Source: Halarcobacter sp.
Lineage (GTDB): Bacteria; Campylobacterota; Campylobacteria; Campylobacterales; Arcobacteraceae
Length of the DNA stretch: 64,000 nt
Direction: 5' to 3'
Assembly (NCBI GenBank): GCA_963676565.1
Contig: OY781089.1
Location: forward strand, 1,376,001 to 1,440,000
Shown: piece by piece, positions 9,535 to 15,202 of the stretch
How positions within the stretch are numbered: position 1 is the stretch's first letter
Layout: every line of letters begins with the position of its first letter
Translations under genes and position numbers: made by a program
Notes under the pieces: model-generated
What the model was told of the DNA's origin: nothing
Seen by the model: the letters and a program-made list of their open reading frames with translations, nothing else
Databases searched by the model: none

Positions 9535-9813
9535 AATTTCTTTTCTTACAATTCTAAAACTTCAAAAAATAACAAAAAATTATATATAAAGTAGAGAAAA
9601 TATTAGTTCTTATATAACACTTTAAATCTCAAATATAAAATAGTGTTTATTTGCAATTAATTTGAATTTAAAATTTGTCTTAAATTGAAGCTTTAAAATG
9701 TATAAAAAGAATATAAGTTTAATCTATATTATATAATTACGTTTTAATTTTAAAAGGGTATAATTTTTTATAAAATAATTGAGGAAATAGTTTATTCCAT
9801 GGGAGAGGATAGT

Positions 9814-12498
9814 ATGAATAACTTTACTATAGGTAAAAAAATAGGGATAGTAGTTACTTTAATTTCTGTAATTGCTTTAATCATTGGAATTGTAGTTTTG
9901 CAGTATCAAAAGTCTCATCTAAAAGATGAAGTTTATGAACGAGATGCATTGAGTCTTCAGCATATGTCTGAAGATAATATTAATGCAAAGTTTGGTGTAG
10001 GTATTTCAAATGCAGTATCTATTGCTAATGATGGTATGTTAAAAAAGTCATTAAAAGAAAATAATAGAGAAATAGCTATTAATGCCTTATCTAAACTTAG
10101 TAAAGCAATGAAAGATTCAACTGATTTTAAAAACATTAAAGTTCATATTCATACAAAAGATAATAAATCTTTTCTTAGAGCATGGAGACCAGATAAGTTT
10201 GGAGATGATCTTAGTAGTTTTAGACATAGTGTAGTTCAAGTAAATTCAACAAAAAAAGCTGTAAATACCTTTGAACTTGGGAAAGCTGGATTATCTATTA
10301 GGTCAGTTATGCCAATTATGGACGAGGGAACTCATTTAGGTTCTTTAGAGTTTGTTCAAGGCTTAAATTCCGTTGCAAAAATATTTAACAAACAAGAAAA
10401 AGGTTTTCTTCTTTTAATGGATAAAAGAAAATCTTCAGTAAAACTTTTTAATGAAGAGTTAATATATAAGACTAATTATGTAATCTCACAAAATTTTTTA
10501 AATGAAGATTTTTTCAATGATGCAAAAAATATAAACTTAGATGAACTATTAAAAAACAAAACATATCTTACTGATAAATATCTTTATACATATGAAGTTG
10601 TTAAGGATTTTAGAGGAGAAGAGTTAGGTATTGTAATTTTAGCAGATACAATGAAACATGTAAATTCTGCAGTTGAAGATGCAGAAACTATAATCAACAC
10701 TGCACTAATTTTAATAGTATCACTTTTAGTTTTCATTTTAATTTTTATAACTTTGACAATTAGAAAAATTGTAATTACTCCTTTAAATGAGCTAAGAAAT
10801 GGAATTGATGAGTTAACTAACAATTCAAATAGTTCTTCTATGAAAATTACAAAAAAATCAGATGATGAACTTGGTTTAGTTGTAGATAGTTTTAATAATT
10901 ATTTACAATTTATTGAAGATGGAATTAAACAAGATGGTGTAGTTATCAATGAAGCAATTGATATTATAGAAAAAACAAAAAATGGTTTTTATTCATATAA
11001 TATTAATTCAAAAGCAAACTCTCCACAAGTTGAAGAGTTTAAAAATAAAGTTAACGAGATGTTGGATATAACAAAAGATAATCTTAGTATGGTTACAAAG
11101 GCACTTATCGAATTTGGTAATGCTAGATATAATTATACAATTGATGCAAAAAGTTCAGGAAATATAGGTTCATTAATTAAAGGAACAAACTCTTTAGGAA
11201 GTTCAGTTTCTGAAATTTTATGTATGATTGATAATACAAGTAAAAGAGTTTCAAACAATGCAGAAGAGTTAGCAGCAACTTCTGAGCAATTATCAGCATC
11301 TTCTACCCAACAAGCTGCTTCTTTAGAGGAAACAGCAGCTGCTGTTGAAGAGATAACATCAACAATTACTCAAACAGATGAAAAGACGAAAAAGATGTTA
11401 GAAATTTCAAGTGAATTATCTAATACAAGTAAAAAAGACAATGAATTAGCACATAAAACTGGTAGCTCAATGGAAGAGATTAATAAAGCTACAAATGATA
11501 TTGTTGATGCAATTACAATAATTGACCAAATCGCTTTCCAGACAAATATTCTTTCACTTAATGCAGCTGTTGAAGCTGCAACAGCAGGAGAAGCAGGGAA
11601 AGGCTTTGCCGTAGTAGCTCAAGAAGTTAGAAATCTAGCAGCAAGAAGTGCTGAGGCAGCTAAAGAGATTAAAGATATTGTTACATTTGCCCAAGAAAAA
11701 ACAAAAGAGGGTAAAGAAACAGCAGATATTATGGTTGAAAGTTTCAAGACTTTGAATAAAAGAGTTCAAGATGTTACTGCATTAGTTGGTGAGGTATCTA
11801 CAGCTTCTGAAGAACAAAAACAAGGAATGATTCAAATTAATGATGCAGTAAATCAATTAGATAAGGCTACTCAAGAAAATGCAAATGCCTCTGAAACTGT
11901 TTCAAGTAAAGCTATGGCATTAAGTGAATTATCTGCACAACTTGTATCTATTATTAATAGAACTTCATTTGATAAATCAAAAGCAAATAGTGTTTGTGAT
12001 GTAAACTTGGTTTTTGATACCACAAAATTAAAACTTGACCATGTAAATTTCAAAGAAACAAATTTTGTAAGACTTGGAGATGGGAAAAATTGGACAGTGA
12101 AAAATCACCATGAATGTGATTTAGGTAAATGGATTGAAGCTCATAAAAATGAACCATTTACTAATAATTCTGATTGGCAAGAGTTTTTAAAAGCTCATGA
12201 AGAAGTTCATTCAAATGTTCAAGAATATATCAATGTTGATAGTGTAAACAAAAGAGATGAAAGACTTCCTTCTATTGCAAGAAATATTGAAGAGAGCACT
12301 ACTAAAGTATTTGATTATATTGATAAAATAAAAGTTCATAAATGTGAAGAGATGAAGATTGAACGGGAACGTGAAGTTTCAACTAAGAAAATAAATGACA
12401 ATAAAAAATATGAATCAAGTCATGAGAAAAAAGAGTATTCTAAGCCTAAAACTATAGAATCTCAAAACAATAATAATGATGAATGGGAAAGCTTTTAA
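9814..12498 (+). CDS. Methyl-accepting chemotaxis protein: periplasmic Cache-like domain, HAMP, signalling domain, C-terminal CZB domain
   Basis: Two TM helices, [30 protein letters not shown]-like H...HHECDLGKW...H, terminal EWESF. ATG 9814 follows GAGGA; the track start is 9799. Confidence 0.9.
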
Positions 12499-12564
12499 GC
12501 TTTCTTATTCTAGTGATTAACAATCTATTAACTTTTCATTACTTTATGATTAATACAAAACTAT

Positions 12565-12570
12565 TATAAT
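12565..12570 (+). promoter_or_regulatory. sigma70 -10 box for the putative sRNA
   Basis: TATAAT 6 nt upstream of the structured block starting at about 12577. Confidence 0.55.
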
Positions 12571-12576
12571 TTTCAT

Positions 12577-12695
12577 ATGGAAAGAGAAAGGACGTGCGAA
12601 ATCCTTTCTCAGTTAATTTAAAAATAGCGAATTTTTAAGTTTTCCAAATTTGTTTCCTTGTGTGTGAAAAGGTTCCTTAGGGAACCTTTTTTTTT
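12577..12695 (+). ncRNA. Putative stand-alone structured small RNA (about 120 nt)
   Basis: TATAAT upstream. Outer stem TGGAAA/TTTCCA encloses hairpins GAGAAAGGA/TCCTTTCTC and AATTTAAAAAT/ATTTTTAAGTT; then single-stranded TTTGTTTCCTTGTGTGTG and a strong terminator. Confidence 0.65.
12667..12695 (+). terminator. Intrinsic terminator
   Basis: AAAAGGTTCC-TTAG-GGAACCTTTT followed by further Ts (T9 in total). Confidence 0.85.
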
Positions 12696-12760
12696 ACCCA
12701 AAATAAAGTAGACTACTGCTAATATTCGCTCCATGAAAAACTACCTAAGACTTATTATCA

Positions 12761-14803
12761 ATGCCTTTATCTAATTTAAACGAAGACCAATTAAGTGCTG
12801 CAACATGTGAAAAAGGGTTTAACCTTATTATTGCTAGTGCTGGTACGGGAAAAACTTCTACAATTGTAGGAAGAATTGCAAATTTAATTAATAATGGCGT
12901 AAAACCTGAAGAGATACTACTATTAACTTTTACAAATAAAGCAGCTGCTGAAATGGTTACAAGGGTTGCTAAATTTTTTGGAAAAGATACAGCAAAAAAG
13001 ATTATGGCTGGAACTTTTCACTCTGTATCTTATAAACTTTTAAAAGAGTTAAATATAAATATAACTCTAAAGCAACCAAGTGAATTAAAGACATTATTTA
13101 AATCTTTATATGAAAAAAGAGTTTTTTATGATAGAAATGATGAGGCTAATCCATATGATGGGGGTTATTTGTATGACCTTTATTCTTTATATCTAAACTC
13201 TAATGATGGAGAAGATTTAGGAACATGGATTAAAAATAAAAATGAAGCCCATGAGATTTATACTCCAATATATGAAGATGTTGTTTTAGAATTTAATGAG
13301 TTAAAAGTAAAGTATGGATATGCAAATTTTGATGATTTATTAACTATTATGCTGGATACTTTAAAAGAAAGTGAATTTCCTTTTAAAGAGATACTTGTGG
13401 ATGAATATCAAGATACTAACCCTTTACAAGGAAGACTTTTAGATGCTTTTAAACCAAAATCACTATTTTGTGTAGGTGATTATGACCAAAGTATTTATGC
13501 TTTTAATGGTTCAGATATTGGGATTATCTCAACTTTTTCAACTAGATATAACAATGCAAATGTTTTTACATTAAGGAAAAACTATCGTTCTTCTAGACCT
13601 ATTTTAGATTTAGCTACAAAAGTTATTGAACACAATGAAAGAATATATGAAAAACATCTGCAGGTTATGAGAAATGATGTATCAATTCCACCAAAACTTT
13701 TAGCTTTTAATGAGCTTTTTGCACAATATCATCATATTTCTGATTTGATTTCAAAAAGTTCAACCCCACATAATGAGATTGCAATTATCTTTAGAAATAA
13801 TTCAAGTGCTGATGGGATAGAAGCAAACCTAAGAGAATATGGAATCCCAGCTAAAAGAAAAGGGGGAATGTCTTTTTTTGATTCTGTTGAGGTTAAATTT
13901 GTTTTAGATTTACTAGTTATGCAATTAAGCCATAATGATATGATGGCCTTTATTCATATTTTAGAGCATGGGAAAGGTATTGGAAAGGCAATTTCAAAGG
14001 ATATCTTTGATGCCTTAATTAAATTAGGCCATGGTGACATTTTTAAAGGCTTATTTCATCCAGATGATTCAATTTTAAATCCATACGAATCAAATAGAGT
14101 CAAAAATATACAACTTGGTCTTTTTGATGATTTTGTTGAATTAGGCTCAGTATCAAAATTTAAAGATTGTGGTTTTGAAGAGGCATTTTTAGGAAACCCA
14201 ATTTTAAAACACCCAAAACTTACAGTTGATGGAGCAAAATATATTTATGATTTTTATCTACTAATAAAACAAATTAGAAGAACTAAAAATCCAGATTCAT
14301 TAATTGCATCTATTACAGGATCTATGCTTTATTCAAGACTTAAAGATTTTCTTTCTATAAAAAGAGCAACCCAAAAAGATGGAACAGTAAATCCTGTACA
14401 AAAGGCAAAGGCATTAGCAAAATTAAATAGAAAAGTGATGCTTTTAAAACAGCTTTCAAGAAATTTTAATGACCTGTCAAAGTTTGTAAACTCAATGATT
14501 TTAGGTGGTGGTGAGATGAGTGAAGGTGAAGGGGTAAATCTTCTTTCTGTTCACGCAAGTAAAGGTTTAGAGTTTAAAGAGGTTTTTGTAATTGATTTGA
14601 TGGATGGAAGATTTCCAAACAGAAAATTGATGAGTAAAGGTGGAAGTTTAGAAGAGGAAAGAAGACTTTTTTATGTTGCAGTAACTAGAGCAAAAGACGT
14701 ACTTTATTTAAGTTATGCCAAGTTTGATAAAATCAAAAAAATGGATTTTATCCATTCTCCATTTTTAAAAGAAGCAGGATTAATTAAAAAAGAATCTGAA
14801 TAA
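12761..14803 (+). CDS. ATP-dependent DNA helicase, UvrD/Rep family
   Basis: ASAGTGKT, LTFTNKAA, VDEYQD, VGDYDQSIY, HASKGLEF, EERRLFYVAVTRA. Confidence 0.92.
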   Translation: MPLSNLNEDQLSAATCEKGFNLIIASAGTGKTSTIVGRIANLINNGVKPEEILLLTFTNKAAAEMVTRVAKFFGKDTAKKIMAGTFHSVSYKLLKELNINITLKQPSELKTLFKSLYEKRVFYDRNDEANPYDGGYLYDLYSLYLNSNDGEDLGTWIKNKNEAHEIYTPIYEDVVLEFNELKVKYGYANFDDLLTIMLDTLKESEFPFKEILVDEYQDTNPLQGRLLDAFKPKSLFCVGDYDQSIYAFNGSDIGIISTFSTRYNNANVFTLRKNYRSSRPILDLATKVIEHNERIYEKHLQVMRNDVSIPPKLLAFNELFAQYHHISDLISKSSTPHNEIAIIFRNNSSADGIEANLREYGIPAKRKGGMSFFDSVEVKFVLDLLVMQLSHNDMMAFIHILEHGKGIGKAISKDIFDALIKLGHGDIFKGLFHPDDSILNPYESNRVKNIQLGLFDDFVELGSVSKFKDCGFEEAFLGNPILKHPKLTVDGAKYIYDFYLLIKQIRRTKNPDSLIASITGSMLYSRLKDFLSIKRATQKDGTVNPVQKAKALAKLNRKVMLLKQLSRNFNDLSKFVNSMILGGGEMSEGEGVNLLSVHASKGLEFKEVFVIDLMDGRFPNRKLMSKGGSLEEERRLFYVAVTRAKDVLYLSYAKFDKIKKMDFIHSPFLKEAGLIKKESE

Positions 14804-14843: not shown

Positions 14844-14881
14844 TTTGTGTTACCATAATAAATCACACATTAGGAATTTAT

Positions 14882-15202
14882 ATGCAAAAGATTGAAGTCT
14901 CAAAGTTAAGTAAAGTTATTGCAAATAAAGAGGAAAATGATTTAAAAGAAATCAATTTTGCAATTAATGAAGTAAATCAAATTCTTCAACTTGAGATGGT
15001 AAGAGAAACTCAAATAAAGCATAAACTTAATGAGGTTTTTAAACCTAGTACTATTTCTACTTTAAAAACTCATTTAGTAAATATTCAAAAAAATATTGAA
15101 CATCTAAATATTTTTTTACTAATGTTAAAATCAAAAATCCAGATTGAAGTTTCAGAAAAAATAGATTTTTCAAAAGCAACTCCAATTTCAAAATTTTTAT
15201 AA
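14882..15202 (+). CDS. Hypothetical helical/coiled-coil protein (106 aa)
   Basis: ATG 14882 follows AGGA; the track uses an upstream TTG at 14834. No recognisable motif. Confidence 0.65.
   Translation: MQKIEVSKLSKVIANKEENDLKEINFAINEVNQILQLEMVRETQIKHKLNEVFKPSTISTLKTHLVNIQKNIEHLNIFLLMLKSKIQIEVSEKIDFSKATPISKFL

Follow-up and report, generated by a model that had tools for sequence, protein, structure and literature searches.

A conserved family of small RNA genes with a predicted anti-Shine-Dalgarno seed in Halarcobacter and related Arcobacteraceae

What is encoded in the 262-nt spacer between a chemoreceptor gene and a UvrD-type helicase gene (uvrD/pcrA) of Halarcobacter sp.? The spacer lies in the window, the 64-kb stretch of DNA analyzed here, which corresponds to positions 1376001-1440000 (C1) of a complete 3.34-Mb genome. 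A first-pass annotation of the window had proposed a stand-alone structured small RNA (sRNA) that pairs with the ribosome-binding site of a gene further downstream. The TATAAT box, the three-way junction, the unpaired tract with its seed at 12654-12667 and the terminator with nine T residues are all found where that annotation had placed them (Table 1). As judged from its sequence, the element is not a chance hairpin; it belongs to a real, conserved family of sRNA genes that Halarcobacter shares with related genera. With its own promoter and terminator, the element would be a short non-coding RNA gene without a conserved open reading frame (ORF) and would belong to the trans-acting class. We put the probability at roughly 70% that the family acts by Hfq-independent pairing of an anti-Shine-Dalgarno, G/U-rich seed with C/A-rich ribosome-binding regions.

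Table 1. Features of the locus and of related loci in the same genome. Positions are counted from the first base of the window; those prefixed with C1 are positions in the complete genome. MFE, minimum free energy.
Feature	Position	Strand	Basis or remark
Chemoreceptor gene (dCache/MCP/CZB)	9799-12498	+	5′ neighbour of the sRNA
Four direct repeats (ATTAAC 12516, ATTAAC 12527, ATTAC 12538, ATTAAT 12549)	12516-12554	+	Exact 11-bp phasing
-10 box TATAAT	12565-12570	+	Fixed distance in every aligned copy
14-codon frame (MERERTCEILSQLI)	12577-12621	+	Opens at ATG 12577; judged not to be a gene
5′ three-way junction	12578-12646	+	MFE fold, covariation
Closing helix P1 (TGGAAA/TTTCCA)	12578-12583 with 12641-12646	+	MFE fold
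Hairpin 1	12584-12610 (arms 12584-12592 / 12602-12610)	+	MFE fold
Hairpin 2	~12615-12640 (arms 12615-12625 / 12631-12641)	+	MFE fold
Conserved single-stranded core TGTTTCCTTGTGT	12651-12663	+	Putative anti-Shine-Dalgarno / G/U-rich seed
Rho-independent terminator (10-bp stem, 4-nt loop, nine T)	12667-12695	+	Fold
UvrD-type helicase gene (uvrD/pcrA)	12761-14803	+	3′ neighbour of the sRNA
Earlier proposed target site	14863-14876	+	5′ of ORF 14882-15202; regarded as a chance match
Two sibling small RNA genes flanking a 66-aa ORF	C1:777090-777750	minus	Outside the window
Repeat pair upstream of cbb3 oxidase subunit I	C1:1049732		
mlaA	C1:1782394-1783236	minus	MlaA lipoprotein by Pfam
Repeat pair upstream of 706-aa multihaem cytochrome	C1:2869399		

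Transcription from the sigma-70-type TATAAT promoter would begin at about 12577, some 7 nt past the box, and would yield a trans-acting RNA of ~115-120 nt. The predicted fold of this sRNA has an MFE of -37.3 kcal/mol (z = -4.56), and 0/200 shuffles fold equally well. The loops of hairpin 1 and hairpin 2 both contain GCGAA in the window copy. The same helices can be followed in relatives. A plain MAFFT alignment analyzed with RNAalifold recovered only parts of P1 and of the terminator, as the stems were misaligned, and a model-based alignment was used instead. The pair counts come from 51 model-aligned copies, 49 of them distinct, from at least five genera. In this alignment 89.6% of cells in the helices are paired, vs 74.0 ± 0.6% in shuffles (0/500 reach 89.6%) and 43-73.5% when the partners are slid; the alignment was fitted to the covariance model's structure, so the pairing figures lean towards that structure, a bias that the slid controls share only partly. 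Among the 49 distinct copies, 34/39 pairs of the sRNA have changed on both sides. By helix these are 3/3 pairs in P1, 11/11 in hairpin 1, 8/10 in hairpin 2 and 10/13 in the terminator, where 96.3% of cells are paired. The proposal of a structured RNA is supported both by a fold that beats chance and by helices that are kept through covariation.

Sequence conservation is distributed differently from structure. Only the promoter, the 13-nt core and the terminator are fixed across the 51 aligned copies; the sequence of the 5′ domain varies from genus to genus. Conservation of 90% or more is reached by a single internal stretch, T(G/A)TTTCCTTGTGT, and the 13-nt core pattern, U(G/A)UUUCCUUGUGU in its RNA form, is matched in 50/51 copies. 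As a seed should be, the G/U-rich tract with its CCUU is better conserved than any other part of the RNA. It is also predicted to be accessible. The mean unpaired probability of the core is 0.70 with a start at ~12577, and in 47/50 copies its predicted exposure exceeds that of the rest of the RNA when transcription starts 7 nt after the -10 box. With a start three bases earlier, the mean is 0.55 and the 5′ end is predicted to be able to cover the seed in part.

The transcript had also been read as a possible dual-function RNA that encodes a leaderless peptide of 14 residues. We regard this as extremely improbable. An ATG does stand at the inferred 5′ end (12577) and is followed by an open frame of 14 codons, but the frame ends as Met-Asp-stop in 21/29 same-genus copies and the ATG is absent from two. 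Both closest relatives, which are 96% identical, have the frame shifted by an indel. Neither the frame nor the peptide is kept.

How widely does the element occur? In a DNA search of the source genome and 60 relatives, 61 genomes in all, it was found in 23/24 Halarcobacter genomes. Several of these carry 2-4 copies, with tandem pairs about 200 nt apart, and several genomes have extra copies on other contigs. A covariance model (R1) built from 29 copies matched 47 of 151 Arcobacteraceae genomes. The matches include all genomes of Halarcobacter (g1, 21/21) and of a Malaciobacter-like genus (g38, 7/7). They are weaker in six genera beyond these two (g11, 11/21; g3, 2/6; g7, 2/11; g43, 1/2; g10, 1/6; g46, 1/3), and 14 further Arcobacteraceae genera among the 151 genomes gave no match. 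We inspected 20 of the weaker matches: 11 have the same seed with a different 5′ domain, eight are siblings that lack the G/U tract, and one resembles a bare terminator. An exact-pattern scan over 185,579 species (one genome each) returned 25 stretches. Sixteen of them, with the full architecture, are in Halarcobacter, Arcobacter, Malaciobacter or Campylobacteraceae; the other nine are chance matches from unrelated taxa.

The first-pass annotation called the element stand-alone, which is not supported: the family has multiple copies, often in tandem, and the source genome contains two siblings with a different C/U-rich tract. These siblings, near C1:777 kb, have the same type of promoter with TTAAC repeats as the window copy, as well as its three-way junction and its GCGAA loops. 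Between hairpin 2 and the terminator, a UCUCC-type tract replaces the G/U-rich core. Similar siblings are present in Halarcobacter genomes other than the source genome, and two more genera have them too. Such exchange of the tract indicates a modular family in which the promoter is of one type, each genus has one scaffold, and the C/U-rich, anti-Shine-Dalgarno-like tract comes in two kinds.

A family built in this way could also be understood from its 5′ end. The structured 5′ domain would then be the main actor, its GCGAA loops binding or titrating a protein or docking an RNA, and the conserved tract would be a protein-binding site. The same GCGAA motif is present in both loops of nearly all Halarcobacter copies, and the two siblings without the G/U-rich tract retain the same 5′ domain. 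However, the domain and its loop motif are lost in other genera that keep the seed, and it is the seed that is the most conserved part. Searches in which control genomes gave matches found no gene for Hfq (PF17209), CsrA (PF02599) or ProQ in the source genome, which is 99.97% complete; the absence of Hfq had been expected and is borne out here. CsrB/RsmZ-type sponges carry many GGA loop motifs and have CsrA/RsmA as their partner. We rejected a sponge of this type, since the loops contain GCGAA and not GGA and PF02599 has no match in the genome. Overall, we consider it unlikely that the 5′ domain is the main actor, and retain the pairing of an exposed seed as the preferred explanation.

The position of the element suggests a role in cis, as a leader or attenuator of uvrD/pcrA whose terminator gates read-through. 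In 23/23 Halarcobacter loci the sequence for the UvrD N-terminus starts no more than about 100 nt past the last sRNA copy, and the succession of three-way junction and terminator resembles the layout of a riboswitch. In other genera uvrD lies downstream in 1/7 loci only. That the uvrD context is mostly confined to Halarcobacter, with extra copies located elsewhere, argues for a stable insertion site and not for a cis-acting leader. The tandem pairs also speak against such a leader, as does the variation of the 5′ domain between genera that keep the tract before the terminator. No alternative anti-terminator pairing was seen, and there was no Rfam match. A function as a leader of uvrD is therefore quite unlikely.

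It is very unlikely that the element is a terminator or insulator between the chemoreceptor gene and uvrD, combined with a DNA operator, and that it makes no functional RNA. The candidate RNA is known from DNA sequence alone, and its terminator, with an A-tract and a T-tract, could act in both directions. Nevertheless, the fixed-distance TATAAT and the covarying helices make sense only for an RNA, copies occur also away from the chemoreceptor/uvrD pair, and the chemoreceptor gene has its own hairpin directly past its stop codon. The latter is a short hairpin with a T-rich tail at 12485-12510. It looks like the chemoreceptor gene's own terminator, distinct from that of the sRNA.

The promoter aligns without gaps in 30-31 copies from 24 genomes as (A/G)TTAAC-N5-(A/G)TTAAC, two TTA-type boxes and TATAAT, and the sRNA promoters contain two to four (A/G)TTAAC-type half-sites at 11-bp phase. 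The four repeats of the window copy are presumed binding sites for a transcription factor, which would presumably activate the promoter. A profile of the promoter, compared to the 3.34-Mb genome at E < 0.01, found three sites, every one of them 5′ of a small RNA gene: the window copy and the two at C1:777.2-777.7 kb. A conserved promoter of its own (a TATAAT at fixed distance and upstream boxes), together with a covarying terminator, supports the claim of an independent small RNA gene.

The pair of repeats by itself is more widespread. On its two strands together, the genome has 54 occurrences of the pattern (A/G)TTAA(C/T)-N5-(A/G)TTAA(C/T), and 42 of these fall in the 8.4% of the genome left intergenic by a simple ORF caller. 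Genes near such pairs encode cbb3 oxidase subunit I, a multihaem cytochrome, a PCuAC copper chaperone, the NiFe hydrogenase small subunit, two TonB-dependent receptors, ExbB and a rhodanese. Two repeat-pair sites are identical at 26/28 bases. Several pairs adjoin genes for OmpR-type regulators. The OmpR-type DNA-binding domain has 56 matches in the genome, 54 above the Pfam cut-off, which is an unusually large set for a genome of this size. Of 55 OmpR-type genes scanned with NCBIfam, a single one was assigned to a named family, of a heavy-metal type, and no gene was identified as CosR or HsrA.

CosR and HsrA are orphan OmpR-family regulators of Campylobacter and Helicobacter, and HsrA, the H. 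pylori homologue of CosR, binds similar 11-bp-spaced repeats. In the C. jejuni cmeABC promoter, CosR protects a 21-bp site in which two direct half-sites, ATTAAC and ATTAAG, are spaced by about one turn of the helix (PMC10936212). The CosR site described there and the sRNA promoters both have TTAAC-type direct half-sites about one turn apart, which is a resemblance only. Our best guess for the regulator of the sRNA promoter would be an OmpR-family response regulator.

As for known RNA families, Rfam contains none that matches the sRNA, and no family reached its gathering score within the 64-kb window. At E values up to 10, 21 matches were obtained between 12450 and 12800. GcvB was not among them, and the weak matches that were aligned rest mainly on the terminator. 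Full-text searches of the literature turned up no description of an RNA like this one. A GC-IGR analysis of Arcobacter sp. L reports unnamed motifs confined to Arcobacter, and these may include it (PMC6429828). Found neither in Rfam nor in the literature searched, the sRNA family is new and makes a good candidate for an Rfam entry of its own; the kind of regulator is well known. Most of what is known about post-transcriptional control in Campylobacterota comes from Helicobacter pylori and Campylobacter jejuni, and the literature searched described no such control for free-living or animal-associated Arcobacteraceae.

In the pairing mechanism that we favor, the 5′ three-way junction and the strong terminator would leave the 13-nt core exposed between them. 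The CCUU part of the core would mimic the anti-Shine-Dalgarno end of 16S rRNA. The GUGUGU part would add specificity for C/A-rich sequence just 5′ of the ribosome-binding site. Pairing of the core at a leader would then keep translation from being initiated, with no need for Hfq, ProQ or CsrA.

The closest known parallel in this respect is GcvB of Enterobacteria (RF00022), in which a single-stranded, G/U-rich seed pairs with C/A-rich sequence at or upstream of ribosome-binding sites. GcvB is Hfq-dependent, has the divergent gene gcvA as its neighbor and is under GcvA/GcvR control. The sRNA resembles GcvB in having an exposed G/U-rich seed for C/A-rich leaders 5′ of a Rho-independent terminator, with pairing that is predicted here. 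However, it has no match to RF00022 and no Hfq in its genome, is flanked by a chemoreceptor gene and uvrD instead of gcvA, and has the TTAAC-repeat promoter. In addition, its seed also holds the anti-Shine-Dalgarno CCUU, and the family is multi-copy. Multiple copies are a feature of PrrF1/PrrF2 in Pseudomonas, which are in tandem, Qrr1-5 in Vibrio and OmrA/OmrB in E. coli, all Hfq-dependent and regulated by Fur, LuxO and OmpR, respectively. These are, like the family described here, near-identical and often tandem genes with a common promoter type and seed. In contrast, the Arcobacteraceae siblings combine a common 5′ scaffold with either of two types of seed. A parallel without Hfq is RepG of Helicobacter pylori, whose C/U-rich terminator loop is directed against a G-repeat (PMC8295292). 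Both RNAs belong to a lineage that lacks Hfq, and in both a pyrimidine-containing seed is directed, for the sRNA by prediction, at leaders or ribosome-binding regions of genes for the envelope or chemotaxis. They differ in that the sRNA seed is a linear tract before the terminator, and no similarity in sequence or structure to RepG was seen.

Which genes might the seed recognize? We scored seed duplexes on the region from -40 to +20 of each start of 3214 genes from a simple ORF caller. The site first proposed as a target was described correctly as to its position (14863-14876), the ATG at 14882 and the pairing at 13/14 positions. The pairing is no better than chance. At -18.6 kcal/mol the site ranks 11/3214, and 21 regions reach -18 kcal/mol or lower with the real seed, vs 6-23 regions with 14 control seeds that had shuffled flanks and the CCUU core kept. 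The ORF at 14882 (106 aa) is found in 6/25 genomes of the genus, strongly in three only, and matched no Pfam family. In the two closest relatives the site is altered, from -18.6 to -13.7 and -14.4 kcal/mol. We therefore no longer consider this ORF as a target.

Across the genome, the target enrichment of the real seed appears weak. The real seed beats 13/14 control seeds at ≤-18 kcal/mol and has 69 regions at ≤-16 kcal/mol, vs 31-67 for the 14 controls; at ≤-12 kcal/mol, 2/14 controls exceed it. A different count looks at the leaders themselves. Among 978 genes with an AAGGA Shine-Dalgarno, ACAC stands directly 5′ of AAGGA nine times, vs 1.87 expected, and this ratio is the highest among the 4-mers seen at least five times in that position. 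With this excess and with C/A-rich mlaA leaders (see below), the idea in the first-pass annotation that C/A-rich leaders matter seems to hold.

The top 20 predicted targets have mixed functions, with no theme by Pfam. Seven candidates from the single genome were compared across other genomes. The site is not kept for a 142-aa protein (C1:1866210; present in 16/25 genomes) or for a TolC-like protein, and for prs it is retained in a minority only; these three were rejected. The site of HU is identical in 6/6 Halarcobacter genomes and weaker elsewhere, a pattern that is confounded by relatedness.

The remaining lead is mlaA, which is the most likely conserved target, by predicted pairing, in Halarcobacter and the Malaciobacter-like genus. 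Its start region ranks 1/3214 (-23.4 kcal/mol). For the comparison in 29 genomes, we chose mlaA starts by our own heuristic (Shine-Dalgarno and signal peptide) and calculated energies for the real seed only. With these starts, leaders complementary at ≤-15 kcal/mol were found in 12/16 genomes, i.e., 8/12 other Halarcobacter and 4/4 Malaciobacter-like genomes. The leader sequences differ among these genomes despite the shared complementarity. In 13 genomes of other genera none reached -15 kcal/mol (best -13.2), and six of the 13 carry the same seed. The absence of the complementarity from seed-bearing genomes of g11, g3 and g43 means that mlaA cannot alone fix the seed across the family. We also observed that C/A repeats, followed by the Shine-Dalgarno, make up the whole of the short mlaA leader in both Halarcobacter and the Malaciobacter-like genus. 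The mlaA leader is A/T-rich in five other Arcobacteraceae genera.

A regulon of exported proteins was considered as well. In five other genomes from five genera, the pattern ACACAAGGA(A/G) followed by 3-10 bases and ATG was found 35 times, vs five for the reversed pattern. In these genomes, 11/20 downstream ORFs of at least 60 aa have N-termini like signal peptides, vs a baseline of 22.8%. This enrichment is absent in the source genome, where three counts gave 1/6, 15/69 and 14-15%. Since the five-genome signal is not reproduced in the source genome, we rejected an exported-protein regulon as a finding, and an envelope regulon is only a lead.

These leads can be joined into a broader, speculative picture of a stress circuit, which we think doubtful as a whole. 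Sibling sRNAs with exchangeable anti-Shine-Dalgarno seeds (G/U-rich and UCUCC-type) would be controlled through the TTAAC repeats by one CosR/HsrA-like regulator of the OmpR family. The G/U type would silence mlaA and exported proteins and so remodel the envelope, and the GCGAA loops would recruit an RNA chaperone. In the narrower mechanism of seed pairing, the mRNA of mlaA, which encodes the outer-membrane lipoprotein MlaA, would be the likeliest conserved target in Halarcobacter and the Malaciobacter-like genus. MlaA controls outer-membrane lipid asymmetry and vesicle formation. The invariant 13-nt seed, a promoter type almost confined to sRNA genes in the source genome, and natural siblings with swapped seeds offer a testable entry point. 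A host without all three classical RNA chaperones and with mlaA as a concrete candidate target provides a clean system.

We searched four wastewater RNA runs from four studies (4-6% of sampled words) over 12300-13000, and only conserved pieces of the flanking genes were matched. Contigs from other organisms in these runs matched the stretch at 12485-12510 and parts of uvrD only. Between the sRNA terminator and the start of uvrD, a short -10-like stretch is conserved in the window (12696-12760) and in the relatives' loci.
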